From Escherichia phage Sa157lw: a DNA stretch of 64,000 nt. This document shows, in pieces, positions 2,082 through 54,197 of this stretch. The DNA is taken from the sequence record OK322699.1; one strand, 5' to 3'. The notes below the pieces were generated by a model. The model searched no databases. It worked only from the letters and a program-made list of their open reading frames with translations, and had not been told where the DNA came from. Position 1 is the first letter of the stretch; each line of letters begins with the position of its first letter. Made by a program: the position numbers and the translations under genes.

Positions 2082-5000
2082 ATGGCCAACAAACCAACAC
2101 AGCCTCTTTTCCCTTTGGGTTTAGAAACTTCGGAGTCTTCGAACATAAAAGGCTTCAACAACTCCGGCACCATAGAGCATTCCCCTGGTGCAATATTGAC
2201 GTTCCCTGAAGATACTGATGTTGCGGGTCTCCCATCTTCTGTGCGTTACAATCCTGATAGTGATGAATTCGAAGGTTATTACGAAAATGGCGGGTGGTTG
2301 TCTTTGGGTGGTGGCGGAATACGCTGGGAAACGCTCCCATACGCTCCCTCCAGCAATCTGTTAGAAGGGCGCGGCTATCTCATTAATAACTCCACTGGGA
2401 CTTCTACGGTGGTTCTTCCTTCCCCTACGCGCGTTGGTGACTCGGTTACAATTTGTGATGCCTATGGTAAATTCGCGACGTATCCATTGACCGTATCTCC
2501 AGCGGGAAATAACCTGTACGGCTCCACCGAAGATATGACGATATCCACCGATAACGTGTCGGCGACTTTCACTTGGTCTGGTGCTGAGCAGGGTTGGGTT
2601 GTTACATCTGGTGTTGGCCTCGGTCAAGGTCGTGTGTACAGTCGAGAGATTTTCACTCAAATTTTAGCATCTGATACAAATGAAGTGACTCTCAACATCC
2701 CTCCGACAATTGTGGACGTGTACACTGATGGGAAACGCCTTACAGAATCCAAATATTCTTTAAATGGAAACGTAATCACTTTCGACCCTTCTTTACCTGC
2801 TGGCACTGAATTGCAGGTAATAGAATATACTCCGATTCAGTTAGGTACTGGCGGCGGGGGTTCGGGCGCTTCTGCAATCACCTGGATTTACAATGGCGGA
2901 TCCGCTATCGGCGGCGAAACCGAAATAACGCTAGACATCGTTGTAGATGATGTTCCGGCTATTGATATAAACGGGTCTCGTCAGTACAAAAATCTTGGAT
3001 TCACGTTCGACCCATTGACGAGTAAAATCACTCTGACGCAAGAACTGGAACCAGAAGATGAAGTTGTTGTGGTTATAAATGGGACACCAAACATTTATAA
3101 CCAGATCGATCGTTCTTTACAGGAAGTTGCTCGCGCCTACAATTTTACAAATGCTCAAGTTATTTTGAGCAACGATTATACTTCTGCACTGGATAATAAA
3201 GTCGTTATTTATGATACGACATCCCAACGTTCTTGGGGGATTCCATCTGGAATTCCAGCAGGTTCTACAGTGGTTTCCGTCAATGGGGATCAACTGAAAT
3301 ACAAAAATGGATCAACTGAAACCACTGTTACATTGGTGAGCGTACCAGGTAGTGCAGAGAAGTTGAAGAACGATCTGGCGTCGAACTCTGGCGCGGGCAT
3401 GTTGAAAACTTCTAGAGGTGATACCGTAGAAGAAGAATTGACTTTTATTAATCAGAATATGGTCGTTCAAATTTCAGATTTCGCGAGCCTTAGAACTTTA
3501 GTGCCAGCCACAGCGGGCATCCGAGTCAAATTGAAAGGTTATTATTCTGGTTCTGAAATCGGTGGCGGAGAATTCATTTCCGTCGCTGGTGATGCTGTTG
3601 ATGATGCTGGGATGATTGCTCGAGTGTCAAGCAGCTTTTATTGGAAGAGAATTATCGACAAACATATTACTCCTGGTATGTATGGCATCAAAGGGAATCT
3701 TCCAGAAGATCCGGCAGTGAAACTGAACGCTATGTTTACGGCTGCGGCTGCGGCTAACGCTTATGTCTTACTGAACGATGTTGATACTCTGGTCTGTAAA
3801 AGCCCTGTCGTGATCCCAGCACATTCATTAGTGTACGGCAACAAACGGACCATATTGAAACGTGATGCATCGTTGTCATATGCTAATGATTTCTTGACAA
3901 TTATGAATGATTCATATGTCAAGGGGATCTATGTTGATGGTAGCCGTTTAGATTCTCAGACTCCTCTAGAAGCAGTTTTGGTGCGCATCGCTGGGAATGT
4001 GACTATCCATAAGAGCGAGATCCGAAACAATGCTGGCTATGGCGTTGTTGGTAACGCAGTCCCTGGCATTCGTATCACCAAGAACATTTTTTCCAACTTC
4101 GCCAAAGGTTGTGTGGCTATGTTTGGCGACGGAACGGCGACGAGTGATGATCTGCAAATTAATGATAACAGATTCTTTAACCTGGGCGCGGGAACCATTT
4201 ATGTTGGCGGTTACTCAAACTTCCTTGTCGACAAAAACGTCGGAAGAGGCACTTACGTGGGTTCTCCAGGAAACCGTCTGTATGTTGTGACCAATACCAA
4301 CGGGACTATCACCCAAAGCGCTGGGCCAGATTTTGGGGCGCTGAAAACGGGTATGTTCTTTGTATTGCCTGGTGGTTCTGAACATATGATAACTGCTGTC
4401 AACAGCCTTACAAGTGTGACAGTAACCCCACCACCGCCGTCGAACGCCACAGTTCGTGCAATCGCAGGGACAGGGGATCTTCTGGGCATCCAATCATGCT
4501 CCTACGGCACCATCAGCCGTAACAACCTGACCGATTGTGTGACTTACGGAACTGGTGGAGGCACGATGGAGGGGAGCACTCTGGGTTGCAATTATGTCAC
4601 TTGGGAAGACAACTTCATCCGCAACACAGGTAAGAACGGAATCAACGTCGGGCAATCAGGTGCTGGGGTCGCCACGTGTTCTATCCTGAGGAACACTCTG
4701 ATACAGGTTGGTAACGGCGGTCAGGGTGTTGGCCCAGCGTATCTTCTGCCTTGGTTCGATACGGTAGGTATCGCTCTGTATCAGGGAAACCCAGGTTATA
4801 TGGCGAATATGGACGTCAGTGATAACAACGTCTCTACATGGTCTGGCGATCTGAATGACGGCGCTGCTTGGTTTGGTATGAGCGGTTGTACGGAAGCCAC
4901 TGTGACTTGTACAGGCAACAAATCTTCTGGTTATTCCGACGGCTATGTTCGTGGAGATATATTAGAAGTCACGTTGACAGGTTATGGTACAGGGGCGGCT

Positions 5001-7517: not shown

Positions 7518-10283
7518 ATGACCAGAAATGTAGAAGAATTATTCGGCGGCGTAATCACAGCTCCCCACCAGATTCCTTTCACGTATAAATCAAATGTCGG
7601 TGGAGAAACTTTCATTTCTCTACCTTTCTATCCTGTCGCTGGTGTTGTCACAATTAACGGCGGGGTGCAAGTTCCGTTAGACAACTTCGAAATAGACGGG
7701 AATACGTTAAACCTCGGGCGCGCATTGTCTAAAGATGACGTGGTTTATTGCCTGTTCGACAAAATCCTTTCACCAGAAGATACTTCTAAAGGTATTCGAA
7801 TATACAAATTTCAAGCCGTGGGTGGAGAAACTGAATTCACGCCTGACTTTACTTCTTATGGTGTCCAGTCTCTTTATATCGGTGGTGAGTACAAAACTCC
7901 TGATATAGAATATTCATACAACAGTACGACTGGGAAAGTTTCCTTACAAACTGCGCTGACTGCAGGGGTGTGGGTTGTTGCGGAGATGTCTGTTAAACAA
8001 CCGAATATCAGTCCGGCGTTCGATCGCAGTATCCAAGAAATTGCCCGTTCGGCTAACGTAAAAGACTCTGAAGTCATTGTCAGCACTGATACCATATCTT
8101 TACTCGACGACAAGAAAGTTGTTTATGATTCAGCGGCGCAGATTATTTATGGTTTACCAACTATCCCTGATGGTTCAGTGATTTCTTCTGTTAGTAATGG
8201 GCAACTTACTTATAATCCAGGTAATGTTGTAGTGGATTTGTTGCCTTTAGAAGATTCATTTATTAATGTGATAAACACTCTGGGGCGCAATGATGGTGCC
8301 AAGTATATCGGAGAATGCCATTCTGTTGCTGATCTCAGGAATACTGAACCCACTATGGATGGACAACGCATTATTCTTAAGCAACACACTGCGGGTACTC
8401 TTCTTGGTGGAGGGGTATTCCGTGCGTTAATTGATGGTACAGGAAAGACTGATGATAACGGCACTGTGATCAAAACTGTTGGAGGCGCAGCCTGGTTACG
8501 TGTTAATGCTGATAGAGTTAACCCATTCATGTTTGGTGCTTTGGGCGGTTCTAATGATGATACTATTCCAGTACAATCTTGTGTGGACAGTGGTAAGGCC
8601 ACACAATTAACTGGTGTACATTACGTTAGCAATATCCGGTTAAAATATAATACGTCGTCTATTTATGGGTCTGGATTACATTACTCCAGGTTGCATCAGT
8701 TGCCTTCTGCTACTGGGAATTGTATTACCATAAAAGATACATGCTCCCTTATTGTATTAGACTCCTTTGGGGTATATGGCACAGGTGCACAACAAGGCAC
8801 ATCATTTACTGCGGGTACAACAGGTATCTATATAGAAACTCCTTCAGGTCTCTCAGCTGATTATCCGTTCCACACTACCGCAGACCCAAGACGCGACTTG
8901 TGTATTTCTAAGGTCCATATAGCAGGTTTTGATGAATATGGGTTAAATATTGATAGTGGTAACTTTAGTGTTACTACAGATTCTCTTTTAGTCAACCACA
9001 TCAATCAGGTGGGCGTCCGTTGTGCTACTACTGATTGGACTTGGACAAATATCCAGGTTAATACCTGCGGTAAACAATGTCTGGTTCTTGATGGTTGTGG
9101 TAATGGTCGTATTATTGGTGGTAAATTCATTTGGGCTAACTGGCAACCTTATGGTACAGTAGGACAGTTCCCAGGCATTACTATTAATAATAGCCAGAAT
9201 ATGGTTATTAATGGTATTGAGGTACAAGATTGTGGCGGGAATGGCATTGAGATTAGCGATTCATATTCAATTTCCATGAACGGATTGAACACCAATCGTA
9301 ACGGCATCAACGCTAACAACACTTTCTACAACATCGTATTTAACAAAAGTGATGCAGTTATCAACGGATTCGTAGGACTCAATTATGCCGCGAATAGTGG
9401 TTCAGGTGCTAACTCTAGTGCGGGCAATTTTCAGTTCCTGTCTAATGATTGCAGCGTCACCATTAATGGTGTGGTTGAGACTGGTTATATGGGCATTAAC
9501 TTTATTGGTGATAACAATATTATCAACCCCACAAATTCCGACCTGAGCATTAACGGATTGGTTAATTATTCCAAGACTGGTTTGCAAACCATGAACGAGA
9601 CCCCTACATTTGATGGTGTTAGCACTACACCTGTTTATGTAAGTGTCCCATCTTCTGTAGGGCAAGTAAATGGTCTGAGACTATCACAAGCCAACAAAGA
9701 TAAATTACTGTACTCAAGAACAGCAGGTCCAGAAGGTATTACCATGGCTGCTGTTGTAGTACCTACCATATCTGGAGCTGAAGTATTTAACTTCATGGCC
9801 ATTGGTTCAGGGTTTAGTGATACATCCAACAGTCTTCATCTTCAATTAGTTATAGACGCTTCCGGAAAACAAACAATTGCTTTGCTATTGGGGGGCGATG
9901 GTACAACCCAAATTTTATCTGGGGATTTACCTAACGACCTTAAACTACAAAGTGGTGTGCCATATCATATAGCTATTGGTGCTAAACCTGGATATTTCTG
10001 GTGGAGTATTCTTAATATTCAGACGGGTAAGAGAATCAGACGGTCATTCCGAGGCGCTTATTTAGCTGTACCATTTAATTCTATATTCGGATTAACTTCT
10101 TCATTAACATTCTTCTCGGATAGCAATGCTGGTGGGGATGCCTGTTCTGGTGTAGGTGCTAAAGTGTATGTTGGTATGTTCTCTTCTGAGAATGATTATG
10201 TAGCTTCACGGTACTACAACCTGATTAATCCTGTAGACCCTAATAAGTTAATTAGTTACCGTATATTGGATTCTTCTATTTAA
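7518..10283 (+). CDS. tailspike protein (921 aa from ATG 7518), gp10-like domains plus parallel beta-helix
   Basis: ORF-track start 7503 lies inside the palindrome; ATG 7518 preferred. Beta-helix repeats (VINGIEVQDCGGNGIEISDS...). Shares module with the 1057-aa tailspike. Confidence 0.7.
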   Translation: MTRNVEELFGGVITAPHQIPFTYKSNVGGETFISLPFYPVAGVVTINGGVQVPLDNFEIDGNTLNLGRALSKDDVVYCLFDKILSPEDTSKGIRIYKFQAVGGETEFTPDFTSYGVQSLYIGGEYKTPDIEYSYNSTTGKVSLQTALTAGVWVVAEMSVKQPNISPAFDRSIQEIARSANVKDSEVIVSTDTISLLDDKKVVYDSAAQIIYGLPTIPDGSVISSVSNGQLTYNPGNVVVDLLPLEDSFINVINTLGRNDGAKYIGECHSVADLRNTEPTMDGQRIILKQHTAGTLLGGGVFRALIDGTGKTDDNGTVIKTVGGAAWLRVNADRVNPFMFGALGGSNDDTIPVQSCVDSGKATQLTGVHYVSNIRLKYNTSSIYGSGLHYSRLHQLPSATGNCITIKDTCSLIVLDSFGVYGTGAQQGTSFTAGTTGIYIETPSGLSADYPFHTTADPRRDLCISKVHIAGFDEYGLNIDSGNFSVTTDSLLVNHINQVGVRCATTDWTWTNIQVNTCGKQCLVLDGCGNGRIIGGKFIWANWQPYGTVGQFPGITINNSQNMVINGIEVQDCGGNGIEISDSYSISMNGLNTNRNGINANNTFYNIVFNKSDAVINGFVGLNYAANSGSGANSSAGNFQFLSNDCSVTINGVVETGYMGINFIGDNNIINPTNSDLSINGLVNYSKTGLQTMNETPTFDGVSTTPVYVSVPSSVGQVNGLRLSQANKDKLLYSRTAGPEGITMAAVVVPTISGAEVFNFMAIGSGFSDTSNSLHLQLVIDASGKQTIALLLGGDGTTQILSGDLPNDLKLQSGVPYHIAIGAKPGYFWWSILNIQTGKRIRRSFRGAYLAVPFNSIFGLTSSLTFFSDSNAGGDACSGVGAKVYVGMFSSENDYVASRYYNLINPVDPNKLISYRILDSSI

Positions 10284-10337
10284 AAATATACCCCTCTTCG
10301 GAGGGTATTTACTAGAGAAAAACAGGAGATTCTTATT

Positions 10338-33816: not shown

Positions 33817-34239
33817 ATGAAGAAGTATATCGTTCTTATAACGGGTTCCCGTTCTATAACTGAGCGGGACAAAATATTTGCCAAATTAGATGAACTCTTA
33901 ATCCCTCACGAGATAGAGACGTTTATTGAAGGTGAAGCAGTGGGTGTGGATCTGATATCCCGTGATTGGTGTGAAATCAATTATGTGCATATCACACCAA
34001 TGCCGATTCCTCAAAATTACCATACGTTATATGGGAAAGGTGCGGGCAATCAACGTAACAAAGATATGCTGGACAAGGCTCTAACATTGGCGAAGCAAAA
34101 AGATCTTGAGGTCTTTGGAATTGCATTATGGGATGGTTCGTCTACTGGGACGCAAGACATGATCAAGCGCATGAAGAAAGCGGGAATAAATGTCAATATC
34201 ACTCTCATGGGCAAACCCAAAACCAAACGATTGTTATAA
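33817..34239 (+). CDS. SLOG/DUF2493-like Rossmann-fold protein
   Basis: VLITGSRS ... EGEAVGVD ... QRNKDML ... WDGSSTGTQDMI pattern resembles the DprA/LOG-like DUF2493 family (from memory). Confidence 0.45.
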   Translation: MKKYIVLITGSRSITERDKIFAKLDELLIPHEIETFIEGEAVGVDLISRDWCEINYVHITPMPIPQNYHTLYGKGAGNQRNKDMLDKALTLAKQKDLEVFGIALWDGSSTGTQDMIKRMKKAGINVNITLMGKPKTKRLL

Positions 34240-34269: not shown

Positions 34270-34440
34270 ATGTTACAAATACTGTTGGTGCTTTGTGTCG
34301 CATTTACCATGTACTTCATGGCACGCATCGGTTTTATTACTTTAGATGACATGAAGGGTATCCCACGTGAACCCAAATTCATCTTTCTGAAGAAGTTTGC
34401 CAAAAAGTTCTCAGAAAACTTTATTTATCATCTACCATGA
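34270..34440 (+). CDS. small membrane protein
   Basis: ATG 34270 after GAGGAG SD; one hydrophobic helix (LQILLVLCVAFTMYFMARIGFI). Confidence 0.35.
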   Translation: MLQILLVLCVAFTMYFMARIGFITLDDMKGIPREPKFIFLKKFAKKFSENFIYHLP

Positions 34441-34468
34441 TTAAATACCCCCAAAATTGGGGGTATTT
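34441..34468 (+). promoter_or_regulatory. late-promoter motif TTAAATACCCCC within an 11-bp perfect palindrome (34443-34453 / 34458-34468, 4-nt loop)
   Basis: AAATACCCCCA / TGGGGGTATTT exact reverse complements; right arm contains the GGGGG SD of the ATG at 34471. Confidence 0.6.
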
Positions 34469-34470
34469 TT

Positions 34471-35199
34471 ATGAACGCACAAATCTATGATGTCCTTTCC
34501 TCTGGCAATGCATTTAGCAATCCGCTTCCATCCCTCTCCGGTCCTTCTCAGGATTTAATAACCAGTGGCATCACCAATATACCATTGATAACTGCCAACG
34601 CTACTCCGGAGATGCAGGCGGCTATGGCAGCTGGTGGACTAACACCAGAAAAACTCACAGCAGCCAGCACCATGTATAGCACCGCCAACACAGGGATAAC
34701 AACTCTGAACACATATGGCGACCAAAGTATCAATGACGCGTATTCTCGCATCGGTACTTCCGTGTCATACAAATCAGGTCTGAAGGGTATATCACGAGAG
34801 CCAAACAATTGTGATTTGATCAACAAGGCTTTTGGTGTTGTTCAGGATTTAGGACGCCAATGGCTGAATGCTATGGAAGGCGCTCTACAGACCGTAACAA
34901 ACAAGATATCGGAATTGTATGAGATGATCATGGAAGGTGCCTCAGAAGGAATGGCAAAGCTGCAGGAATTGGCTGCAGAAGTAACGGGACACATCAATAC
35001 TGCGATAACCGCAGTCAACGGGGTTATAAGTGATATTACAGATGGTATAGCCGCAGAACTTGCACACATTGAAAGCATGATCAAAGAGTGCTTGAATTTC
35101 TCTTTTGCTAACGTGCTCGGGGAATGGGCTAAAGATCTGTGCGCCGGAGGTGTTATTGACAAAATAGGGACTCCAGCATTAAAAGAATCCCTGAAATAA
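34471..35199 (+). CDS. hypothetical late protein (242 aa)
   Basis: Preceded by the late-promoter palindrome; Ala/Thr/Gly-rich; function unknown. Confidence 0.5.
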   Translation: MNAQIYDVLSSGNAFSNPLPSLSGPSQDLITSGITNIPLITANATPEMQAAMAAGGLTPEKLTAASTMYSTANTGITTLNTYGDQSINDAYSRIGTSVSYKSGLKGISREPNNCDLINKAFGVVQDLGRQWLNAMEGALQTVTNKISELYEMIMEGASEGMAKLQELAAEVTGHINTAITAVNGVISDITDGIAAELAHIESMIKECLNFSFANVLGEWAKDLCAGGVIDKIGTPALKESLK

Positions 35200-35200
35200 A

Positions 35201-35821
35201 TCAATGACGAGCAGGGAGGACTCCCACTGGTTCGATGCCTTCGATCATCAGGGAGTCCACTCCAACATCGCTCAGGCGAATCCAAACCTTACCCCCTGGC
35301 CTTATCTCATAGATGTTCATCTCGTTTCCAACAGCAGACCCATTCACAAAAACGCCTTGAGTAGCAATCCGAATAGGCGTTTTGGTGTTGTTGATTATCT
35401 GAAAAGATATCGTGATATCCCTTGTCAATTCCACATTTCTTGCTTTTGTATATCTCCTCAATTTTTCAAAGAAAGATGGATTGAATGTGGCTATGATGCT
35501 GTTGTTTTGTGAGTAGTAAATACTGGCAGACAGATAAGGGATTTTTCCCTCATCACCTTTCCTCAATAGAGGGATCGTGGTTTTCCAGTACGGTCTCAAC
35601 GCCTGGTTGTTATCATCAAAACAACCGACGGCTTGTATGGTTTGGAAATTCTGGAAGTCTGCCACAACTTGATCCAGTAACTTTTTATTACATTTGTCGA
35701 CATCAGCAGAAATATTGACTGGTATAGTTCTGATTTCAGGATCCCAAAGATCGGTGACAGAAATCACGGACGTGACAAAGATACGGCAGCTTGTAAGTAC
35801 AAGCACCATTATCATCGTCAT
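35201..35821 (-). CDS. hypothetical protein with lipoprotein-like N-terminus, opposite strand
   Basis: Longest ORF in the 35.2-35.9 kb gap is on the minus strand; ATG at 35821; N-terminus MTMIMVLVLTSC resembles a lipobox. Confidence 0.4.
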   Translation of the reverse strand: MTMIMVLVLTSCRIFVTSVISVTDLWDPEIRTIPVNISADVDKCNKKLLDQVVADFQNFQTIQAVGCFDDNNQALRPYWKTTIPLLRKGDEGKIPYLSASIYYSQNNSIIATFNPSFFEKLRRYTKARNVELTRDITISFQIINNTKTPIRIATQGVFVNGSAVGNEMNIYEIRPGGKVWIRLSDVGVDSLMIEGIEPVGVLPARH

Positions 35822-35884
35822 GATCCATTTTCTGAATCCGCGTATCAGGAACACTAAAAAATTCTCCACAGCAAAGGTGCTAAC

Positions 35885-36382
35885 ATGACAGGTGTACAAT
35901 TCAAAAACGAAAATCCTAATTTCGCGGCTTCCGATAAATGGCGCTTAACCATCGGAGACCTGGTGCTGCTAACCCGTTCGATACACGACTTCAGTATCCC
36001 TGGCGTGTATTCCGAAGGTATCGAAGGCCCATCCCCTGGCGATGTCCTAAACTCTATACCTTCAGAACGTCTCACGTATGACCCCATCGTATTTACGTTC
36101 GTTATCGATGAGAGTTGGTACAACTGGGAACAGATTTACAATTGGATCGCTTCGAACGCGGGTTCAGATTTAGCCGTCAGTAGAGATATTACGATTGAAC
36201 TTTTAGACAACATGAACCGTCCTGTTGGGCTTCAGTTGCTTCTAGAAGAAGGGCGACCAACAGCGCTAGACAACGTGTTGGTTGACGTGGATGCATCGGT
36301 TCCTCAGTTGGTCACAACGGTGACATTCAAATATCTGAAACTGACTCCGACCCGCGTAACCCGCGAAATTGATAAACAATAA
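35885..36382 (+). CDS. hypothetical protein
   Basis: ORF with SD; no homology recognised. Confidence 0.45.
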   Translation: MTGVQFKNENPNFAASDKWRLTIGDLVLLTRSIHDFSIPGVYSEGIEGPSPGDVLNSIPSERLTYDPIVFTFVIDESWYNWEQIYNWIASNAGSDLAVSRDITIELLDNMNRPVGLQLLLEEGRPTALDNVLVDVDASVPQLVTTVTFKYLKLTPTRVTREIDKQ

Positions 36383-36420
36383 GTTATAATACAGAGAGTT
36401 GAAACAGCAGGAAATAAATC

Positions 36421-36876
36421 ATGAGTGAAACAAAATTTGAAACAATGAAGACCGAAGATATAATCGCGGAATTAGATCCTCTTATTTCGGTGAATCCTGA
36501 AGACATGAATTTAGACCAAATATCATTGAAAATTGGTCGTTCATGGATGGCTGTCCAGCGCCATTACATTCGTGAAGGGCGTTATCTAGAATTTTTGACA
36601 GGAAAATTCCGTCAAATCGATCTTTATTTACGTCGGTATTATGCAGGGGAATTACCACCCAATATTTATGTCGAACGTCCCCTGAAAGTTCGCCCCCTGA
36701 AATCTGATATAGACGTTTGGGTAAAGGCTGATGACGATTACATTGAGTTATCGAGCATGTTGCAAGAACAAAAAGCCAAAGTAAAATTAATCGAAAGTAG
36801 TTTAGAACGTTTGAATAAACTCGGCTATGAAGTGAAAAATGCGATTGATTGGCGAAAATACTTGGACGGCATGTGA
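36421..36876 (+). CDS. uvsY: UvsY-like recombination mediator
   Basis: Loose similarity to T4 UvsY (YYAG vs YYSG region; C-terminal LNKLGYEVKNAIDWRKY vs IKSRGFAIKHIQDMRAF); sits just upstream of uvsW. Confidence 0.5.
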   Translation: MSETKFETMKTEDIIAELDPLISVNPEDMNLDQISLKIGRSWMAVQRHYIREGRYLEFLTGKFRQIDLYLRRYYAGELPPNIYVERPLKVRPLKSDIDVWVKADDDYIELSSMLQEQKAKVKLIESSLERLNKLGYEVKNAIDWRKYLDGM

Positions 36877-53190: not shown

Positions 53191-53880
53191 ATGAAACGTT
53201 TAATCCTCGGGGTTGTGCTGGCAGGTCTGGCATTACCCGCCGCCGCCAAGCTGAACTCCACAGGTGACAAACTGTGGTCTGATCTTTCCTACTGTGCTGG
53301 GTTCTCCCAGGCCGTGGCTATAGACAAGTCCGGTTCCATAGAGAATTTCGCTGAACTTTGGAACACGGGTAACGTCTCCACTGCTGTTGTTAATGCTGGG
53401 ATTGAGTTCAACCGTTACAAACAGGGAGCCTACAACTTGAAAGGCTACCTGAATGACGATGAATTTAACCGAGGAGGCATGGAGGCTGGCGATCTCATCA
53501 TGACTGGCCGTATGGGCACACAAGGCCGTATGACTGTAAGGCAATGCCGTTCTCTCCCCTCTCCGGCATTACAGAAGGGTGTGCAAATCGGGCGTCGACA
53601 TTTGGATCTGATCAATGATGGCAACCAATGCATCAAGGTGTTTGAATATAGTGCCGACCAAGAATCAGATCGACGTTTGAAAAAGGAATGGCGGACACGT
53701 GCCCTTGGATTGAGAGCATGGCTCGTAGAAAACGATTATTACTACGAGGATCGTGTTCAGAACGGATTGAAAGATCTTTCCACTAATTTGTCTGTCAATC
53801 TAGACGACCCAAGGCTTTCGCGTGAACTCAAGCAAACACGGATTGACTGCGACAATATGATGAAGGAGAACGAAAGATGA
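53191..53880 (+). CDS. secreted/periplasmic protein (signal peptide)
   Basis: ATG 53191; N-terminus MKRLILGVVLAGLALPAAAK is a typical Sec signal peptide. Confidence 0.5.
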   Translation: MKRLILGVVLAGLALPAAAKLNSTGDKLWSDLSYCAGFSQAVAIDKSGSIENFAELWNTGNVSTAVVNAGIEFNRYKQGAYNLKGYLNDDEFNRGGMEAGDLIMTGRMGTQGRMTVRQCRSLPSPALQKGVQIGRRHLDLINDGNQCIKVFEYSADQESDRRLKKEWRTRALGLRAWLVENDYYYEDRVQNGLKDLSTNLSVNLDDPRLSRELKQTRIDCDNMMKENER

Positions 53881-54197
53881 GAAACATAATATTCTTGTTA
53901 TTCTTTTCTATGTTGGCATCATTCCAAGTTATGGCGACTCCGGCCAGCAAATTGAATATTTGCGCGGCCTGGTTGTCTACTTATCAACAATTTCACCCTG
54001 ATGATAAAGATACATCTATCCTTTTATCGGATTATGAAGGTGAGTTGAAACGCCTTGATCTCTACAGCGTGGATCAAATAGAGAATGCTTTAGATTTGCC
54101 AATGATGGAGTCCGCTGCCGACAATAGCAAACAGACGATCAAAGATCTGACTATGTGTCGGGAAATAGCCACTAATTTCGTTGGAAATCAAAGATAA
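53877..54197 (+). CDS. small secreted protein (signal peptide)
   Basis: AAGGAG SD; N-terminus MRNIIFLLFFSMLASFQVMA. Confidence 0.5.
   Translation: MRNIIFLLFFSMLASFQVMATPASKLNICAAWLSTYQQFHPDDKDTSILLSDYEGELKRLDLYSVDQIENALDLPMMESAADNSKQTIKDLTMCREIATNFVGNQR

Follow-up and report, generated by a model that had tools for sequence, protein, structure and literature searches.

A minus-strand DUF7424 gene probably encodes a core Ackermannviridae lipoprotein of the infected-cell envelope

A 64,000-nucleotide stretch of the Escherichia phage Sa157lw genome (OK322699.1; hereafter the window) carries, amid a block of plus-strand genes, a long open reading frame on the minus strand at 35201-35821, which raises the questions of whether this frame is a gene, whether it is an optional addition to the phage and what its product might do. 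Salmonella phage vB_SenM-AKM_ssTn matches region 34400-36500 at 100% identity, and 24 records in all, among them Vi01, ECML-4, Sajous1 and Guerrero, match it at 99% or above; 223 phage records match it in total, and the window is a Kuttervirus genome (Vi01-like, Ackermannviridae). The gene is not new, because GenBank already annotates it, as 'putative lipoprotein' in records including Guerrero, bering and pertopsoe and as 'hypothetical protein' elsewhere, and because its product belongs to a curated DUF. We regard it as probably an Ackermannviridae core gene for a DUF7424 lipoprotein, for which we propose an export route and a site in the cell envelope.

The minus frame is open from 35899 to 35201, or 232 codons from a TTG, with an ATG at 35821 in frame, and the frame at 35201-35821 encodes the peptide MTMIMVLVLTSC. 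Its product matches Pfam DUF7424 (PF24199) with an E value of 2.5e-60 and 204.1 bits against a cut-off of 27, the match spanning residues 26-216 and profile positions 2-195 of 196, and it matches phrog_3832 with an E value of 2.7e-111. Differences from phage bering fall on minus-frame codon positions 1, 2 and 3 in the proportion 20:1:93, and those from three other genera range from 50:29:114 to 64:39:128. The sign of the AT skew also reverses across the gene. These profile matches, the third-position substitution bias and the skew bear out the proposal, made from the sequence-only reading, that the minus strand is the coding strand. There is practically no chance that the real genes are instead two plus-strand frames (35204-35512 and 35509-35718) of which the minus-strand frame is a chance shadow. 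Both are open in the window, at 102 and 69 codons, but they are interrupted or shifted in relatives, where the longest antisense open frames run from 34 to 110 codons, and the 102-codon frame is already broken in bering, a phage of the same genus. Conservation of these two frames, which had been named as the sign that would count against the minus-strand gene, was looked for and not found; substitutions track the minus-frame codon pattern, and it is the minus-frame product that matches a curated Pfam family and has hundreds of homologues. Comparative data had thus already refuted the plus-strand frames as genes.

Public records place the start of the gene at three positions, so that it measures 699 nt in Guerrero and 609 nt in AKM_ssTn, with Mooltan and Sajous1 agreeing on 654 nt. 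The best supported of these, and probably the true start as judged from alignments, is the GTG at 35854 (654 nt, 217 aa). A GTG stands at the same aligned position in five relatives, including bering, a Klebsiella phage, AV101 and LIMEstone1, and the n-region that it opens, M-x-L-(M/I)-R-G-(I/F)-x-R, is conserved in homologues. A Shine-Dalgarno GGAG (35864-35867, minus strand) lies 9 nt upstream, where Mooltan annotates a ribosome-binding site, within a segment, ctgtGGAGa, that is conserved in five relatives. The ATG at 35821, previously taken as the start, is in frame, but it is probably not the true start: the GTG lies 33 nt upstream of it, and a start set 11 codons too far downstream loses the positively charged n-region, leaving no charge there. 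We also rejected the TTG at 35899 (232 aa, as annotated in Guerrero). The extension overlaps the start of the neighbouring gp3-like gene, four genus-level relatives with a conserved MxLMRG n-region have a GTG at the 35854 position, and the PHROG profile match begins at residue 4 of the 217-aa form.

The resulting coding sequence (35201-35854, minus strand) sits in a local gene order that agrees with public annotations of relatives. Its convergent neighbour is the plus-strand gene for a DUF7217 virion protein (34471-35199; Pfam PF23854), itself preceded by a small plus-strand gene, and its divergent neighbour is a plus-strand gp3-like tail completion or sheath stabiliser gene (35885-36382; phrog_45, a tail family, and annotations in relatives), followed by genes for UvsY, a PD-(D/E)XK exonuclease and the UvsW helicase. 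The coordinates confirm both orientations as originally described. The lipoprotein stop codon, TGA at 35201-35203, lies one base after the TAA at 35197-35199 that ends the DUF7217 gene. On the other side, a 30-bp intergenic spacer (35855-35884) holds two ribosome-binding sites back to back, a tight layout shared by relatives, and it leaves no space for promoters. The DUF7217 product is a 'confirmed structural protein' in the LIMEstone1 record, and its Sajous1 counterpart, gp166, was found in virions (PMC10892097). It also shows weak matches to tape-measure and apolipophorin-like helical families, and a match to phrog_289 ('GTP-binding domain') that covers the C-terminal half of that profile only. 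Three further minus-strand frames pointed out elsewhere in the window have as counterparts annotated opposite-strand genes in Guerrero (GUERRERO_165, GUERRERO_135, a clamp loader subunit, and GUERRERO_104, a putative structural protein).

The sequence-only reading had suggested a moron-type accessory gene, a suggestion that the distribution of the gene contradicts. By tblastn it is present in about 347 phage records, whose hosts include Salmonella, Vibrio, Klebsiella, Escherichia, Dickeya, Serratia, Shigella, Erwinia, Enterobacter and Aeromonas. Its presence in related genomes, which had been proposed as a check, is not patchy but nearly equal to that of the gp3-like core gene, with 164 against 167 records in Salmonella phages, 44 against 44 in Klebsiella, 19 against 19 in Dickeya and 10 against 10 in Serratia. 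Place and orientation are fixed as well: the gene is divergent from the gp3-like gene in phiMAM1, LIMEstone1, AV101, a Klebsiella phage and the Vibrio phages K469 and GR28A, and this pairing holds even where the other flank differs. Its G+C content (0.41-0.43, against 0.39-0.50 locally) does not deviate from its surroundings. Because these comparisons find it in essentially all Ackermannviridae phages, we class it as a core gene and not as an optional add-on. The Vibrio relatives keep the gp3 pairing but lack the DUF7217 gene on the flank of the lipoprotein gene, and in K469 a homing endonuclease gene (locus 3592-4917) lies between the DUF7424 and major head protein genes. Contigs of 157-161 kb bearing the gene have also been deposited under Salmonella enterica assemblies, which suggests that Ackermannviridae occur in bacterial genome projects as contaminants or as carrier-state phage.

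The N terminus of the precursor, MFLIRGFRKW followed by a hydrophobic stretch and LTSC (beginning MFLIRGFRKWIMTMIMVLVLTSC/RIFVTS), has the form of a lipoprotein signal when read from the GTG at 35854. The predicted signal peptide comprises residues 1-22 (35789-35854, minus strand), with R5, R8 and K9 in the n-region and an h-region from W10 to L20, the charged residues being followed directly by WIMTMIMVLVL; across 29 homologues the n-region is conserved and the hydrophobic h-region varies. We defined a lipobox as [LVI][ASTVI][GAS]C with the cysteine about 15-35 residues from the start. L20-T21-S22-C23 (35786-35797, minus strand) fits this PROSITE PS51257-type pattern, and Cys23 (35786-35788) is predicted to be lipidated and to begin the mature protein, with Arg24 at +2. 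The pattern also matches 157 of the 178 full-length family proteins, the other 21 being mostly truncated gene calls or near-misses such as LNSC; at +2 the 157 carry K, R or D, with Asp in 31. The cysteine is kept down to about 20-22% identity, bacterial chromosomal homologues included, and the lipoboxes of distant Ackermannviridae (22-36% identity) read LIGGC in phiMAM1, ISSC in Vibrio phage K469 and LMSC in Vibrio phage GR28A. The early description of a lipoprotein signal with a lipobox therefore stands.

An exhaustive profile search of 1.84 billion representatives extended the family, which has 52 close cluster representatives, by 79 distant clusters. All ten of the distant clusters scanned against Pfam returned PF24199, and 32 distant-cluster sequences (185-372 aa) all carry an N-terminal cysteine in a lipobox-like context. 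In an alignment of phage and bacterial members Cys23, Cys55, Cys78, Ser195 and Val197 are invariant. Cys55 (35690-35692, minus strand) and Cys78 (35621-35623, minus strand) are the first and second invariant cysteines of the mature domain in alignments that include bacterial homologues, and the conservation of this additional pair suggests a Cys55-Cys78 disulfide in the periplasm.

AlphaFold2, run on a 35-sequence alignment that included bacterial members, returned five models in agreement (mean pLDDT 81.7, pTM 0.79), in which a disordered signal peptide is followed by a beta-rich domain with four helices; an earlier AlphaFold model of the protein has the same topology. Residues 1-22 have pLDDT below 50, and the folded domain begins at residue 25. 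This modelled arrangement makes it unlikely that the N terminus is an uncleaved signal anchor, as in a type II inner-membrane protein with W10-V32 as its transmembrane helix and an unlipidated cysteine, a reading to which we assign a very small probability. Residues 10-32 are mostly hydrophobic with a single Arg, and the LIMEstone1 annotation gives only a 'putative signal peptide', as an anchor would allow. Against a membrane helix stand residues 25-32, whose conservation is strong and which the model confidently places in a beta strand of the folded domain. The hydrophobic core that precedes them is short and varies freely, yet Cys23 and the following CRIFVTPIISVSDL, the segment modelled as that strand, are invariant and near-invariant, respectively, among homologues, and the bacterial homologues carry classic MKK...L(A/S)GC signals.

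Beyond its own family the modelled domain has no evident kin. Foldseek against the PDB gave nothing below an E value of 0.06, a profile search against PDB sequences gave nothing below 0.9, and a structure search of BFVD returned matches limited to DUF7424 proteins of other Ackermannviridae, so the predicted fold appears to be one without a relative outside the DUF7424 family in either collection. NCBIfam gave no match, the best PADLOC match had an E value of 0.022, and no significant profile match linked the protein to the exclusion and defence families annotated in PHROG or PADLOC; its PHROG matches comprise only two families, both of unknown function.

Where the product resides was approached through the virion. 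The Sajous1 homologue is gp167, and a mass-spectrometry table of CsCl-purified Sajous1 virions lists gp166 and gp168, the products of the two flanking genes, and lacks gp167 (PMC10892097). The LIMEstone1 record similarly marks ORF127 and ORF129 as confirmed structural proteins and gives ORF128, the homologue, a signal peptide only. Neither source thus identifies the homologue as a virion protein, an absence that, coming from literature and annotation, weighs weakly. Taken with the signal peptide, this absence from virion lists points to the infected-cell envelope, rather than the particle, as the predicted site of the product. In enterobacteria an Arg at +2 predicts Lol-dependent transfer of a lipoprotein to the outer membrane. 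From Arg24 we accordingly predict an outer-membrane site, although the protein may instead be retained in the inner membrane. In the AlphaFold model the folded domain begins two residues after Cys23, with no linker between them; a disordered N-terminal linker is present in no more than about half of the outer-membrane lipoproteins of E. coli (bioRxiv 10.1101/2021.01.05.425367), and its absence here is therefore not decisive.

Regulatory sequences were sought around the gene. A late-type motif, aCTAAATAcc, recurs 25-40 nt upstream of many plus-strand genes in the window, with plus-strand sites at 2039, 5267, 7477, 12185, 18700, 22950, 27731, 28949, 34441 and 37620 and a minus-strand site at 10311; TAAATAC is found 16 times where 7.5 occurrences are expected. 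At several sites the 3' half of the motif (AATACCCC) is the 5' arm of a GC hairpin whose 3' arm (GGGGTATT and a T-run) ends just before the start codon, so that the promoter is nested inside a terminator. One such element stands upstream of the DUF7217 gene (34441-34470, plus strand), where a late-promoter-like TTAAATACC lies in a terminator hairpin (AATACCCCC / GGGGGTATT, then TTT). The LIMEstone1 record annotates an equivalent promoter and terminator, and its late promoters share the TAAATA core. Read-through from 34441-34470 would run antisense to the lipoprotein gene.

For the lipoprotein gene itself, scans for sigma-70 promoters, the late-type motif and terminators revealed no convincing promoter or terminator. 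Across 34300-36500 there are four sigma-70 promoter-like sites against 4.3 expected, which is chance level, and no terminator for the gene; CTAAATA is absent from the minus strand near it, and the single match to the T4-type TATAAATA, at 34235, is not relevant to it. The sole minus-strand sigma-70-like site (35836-35808) was discarded, lying downstream of the start codon, as was a TTGAAT at 35898-35903 considered as a -35 element, which by eye has no -10 at a proper distance and is explained by the gp3 codons for Q-F-K. A weak candidate promoter is the minus-strand TAAATAC at 36089-36095, about 235 nt upstream of the GTG at 35854 and within the gp3 codons for V-F-T. It does not have the usual C or T before TAAATA, and the conservation of a TAAATAC at about -240 in six relatives is confounded by the coding of gp3.

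On the opposite strand, a TAAATAC directed towards gp3 (35517-35523, plus strand) underlies the codons AGT-ATT-TAC of an invariant SASIYYS motif. Across four genus-level lineages the AGT and ATT codons do not vary, the background codon invariance being 19%, and phiMAM1 and K469 have a TAAATA that points the same way from elsewhere in the gene. These codon patterns make 35517-35523 a possible late promoter for gp3, embedded in the lipoprotein gene. Late plus-strand transcription towards gp3 must cross part or all of that gene in antisense. In K469 the homologue is preceded, at a distance of 44 nt, by a perfect cCTAAATAcc, a hint of late expression in that phage.

Homologues encoded on bacterial chromosomes provide a further context. 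By cluster names, from which the taxonomic range was read, family members occur in Gilliamella (at least three paralogues), Morganella morganii, Haemophilus haemolyticus and Halomonas. Those examined are single genes in accessory regions and not in prophages. The Morganella homologue lies between flagellar operons and adjoins MliC and DUF333 genes, another adjoins an alpha-2-macroglobulin gene, a Gilliamella homologue is a few kilobases from T6SS islands encoding VgrG, effectors and Tli4, one is near autotransporters, and one is cargo of a P4-like element with a D5_N primase, AlpA and a tyrosine integrase. That cargo homologue (8001-9119 of its locus) is 372 aa long with a C-terminal extension, and small integrative elements of this type often carry anti-phage genes. 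The neighbourhoods are few and heterogeneous, and the common theme of accessory regions rich in periplasmic protective functions is suggestive.

Combining these observations with the established lipoprotein pathway, we propose the following route. The precursor would be exported by Sec, Cys23 would be diacylglyceryl-modified by Lgt, and cleavage by LspA would be followed by N-acylation by Lnt. Because the +2 residue is Arg and not Asp, Lol would then move the lipoprotein to the inner leaflet of the outer membrane, and oxidation would join Cys55 to Cys78 in a periplasmic disulfide. A protein exported and anchored in this way would do its work in the infected-cell envelope, not as part of the virion. 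There it might serve as a guard that binds or inhibits an agent attacking or crossing the envelope, keeping the cell intact until the phage's own lysis; candidate targets would be the machinery of superinfecting phages, lysis from without and other envelope-damaging enzymes. Such a role as a periplasmic guard, a protective or exclusion factor, is the guess that we prefer, though we hold it to be less likely than not; it draws on an analogy with T4 Spackle or T5 Llp, from which the fold differs, and on weak guilt by association with the MliC, alpha-2-macroglobulin and T6SS neighbours and the P4-like cargo. The sequence-only reading had suggested exclusion or host interaction, and the protein may have such a role. 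More doubtful is a wider reading that combines several of these elements, in which DUF7424 would be an unrecognised class of periplasmic protective lipoprotein with its own fold, common to Gammaproteobacteria, a P4-like satellite and all Ackermannviridae, and in phages of the whole family would exclude superinfection or guard against 'lysis from without', its expression being shut off late by antisense transcription from the embedded promoter TAAATAC at 35517-35523. A literature search returned no paper mentioning DUF7424, no experiment on the lipoprotein and no Ackermannviridae transcriptome.

Two other functions for an envelope lipoprotein of a virulent phage were weighed against a guard. 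It could be a lysis accessory that disrupts the outer membrane or times lysis, as a spanin-like protein or lysis regulator; the Mooltan annotators weighed a spanin role in a record note, and the late-type motif in front of the K469 homologue is in keeping with one. We find this improbable, given that the mature domain is globular, about 195 aa long and has no C-terminal transmembrane segment (its C terminus, EGIEPVGVLPARH, is not hydrophobic), that its neighbours are the DUF7217 and gp3-like genes, with no adjacent or overlapping i-spanin gene, that the same annotators noted no coiled coil, that annotation places an i-spanin gene and its partner at a separate site some 18 kb off and that chromosomal, non-prophage homologues exist in free-living bacteria. 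A 106-aa frame (53877-54197, plus strand) corresponds, under an approximate coordinate offset, to the position of GUERRERO_113, which adjoins the i-spanin gene and is labelled a 'putative lipoprotein'. The frame encodes a Sec-type signal (MRNIIFLLFFSMLASFQVMA) and no lipobox cysteine, and if it is GUERRERO_113, the lipoprotein or o-spanin label appears doubtful.

Receptor-masking superinfection exclusion of the T5 Llp/Cor type, in which the protein would bind and inactivate a specific outer-membrane protein used by the phage, strikes us as distinctly improbable. The general design is the same, since Llp too is a lipoprotein that a phage encodes and that sits on the periplasmic side (Braun et al. 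1994, as cited in PMC9409062), and the Arg at +2 predicts outer-membrane targeting. The gene is nevertheless conserved across phages of Salmonella, Klebsiella, Dickeya, Serratia, Aeromonas and Vibrio, and the variable tailspikes of Ackermannviridae phages recognise surface polysaccharides that differ greatly from one another (PMC11721090); a host-specific blocker would be expected to vary or be lost across such hosts. Asp at +2 in 31 of 157 family members moreover predicts inner-membrane retention, and the PHROG search gave no match to an annotated exclusion family.

The advance over existing annotation is small, namely a better start codon and core rather than accessory status. Ackermannviridae phages (Vi01/CBA120-like) are widely used and engineered for biocontrol and diagnostics, and a 2024 review of them centres on tailspikes, host range, engineering and applications, and mentions neither lysis and superinfection nor promoters and transcription (PMC11721090). 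A lipoprotein found family-wide in these phages and in some bacteria probably has an important job in the envelope of the infected cell. Were it to block superinfection or stabilise the envelope, it would alter phage behaviour in cocktails and at high multiplicity.

Set beside known systems, the window protein is a typical member of DUF7424 (PF24199)/phrog_3832, a family with members in phages and Gammaproteobacteria, and shares its length, lipobox and three invariant cysteines. With o-spanins (Rz1-like) and u-spanins (T1 gp11-like) it has in common an N-terminal lipobox in a phage protein, but it has no short proline-rich mature region, i-spanin neighbour or C-terminal transmembrane domain. 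T5 Llp has about 60 residues when mature and blocks one receptor, FhuA; the DUF7424 protein is three times larger than Llp, is unrelated in sequence to it and to Cor of phi80 and N15, has cellular homologues and, unlike Llp, is conserved across hosts with different receptors. T4 Spackle (gp61.3), which is small, soluble and periplasmic, and Imm, which resides in the inner membrane, are non-virion envelope or periplasmic proteins with which a virulent myovirus shields the cell it has infected from incoming phage. The resemblance to them is a proposed analogy only, with no sequence or fold similarity detected, and the window protein is by contrast a predicted lipid-anchored beta domain of about 195 aa. 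The lysozyme inhibitors MliC, PliC and PliG and the T6SS immunity proteins Tli and Tai offer a further likeness, as small, disulfide-bonded, beta-rich periplasmic lipoproteins encoded by single genes in accessory regions, and in some genomes bacterial DUF7424 genes are found near MliC or T6SS immunity islands.
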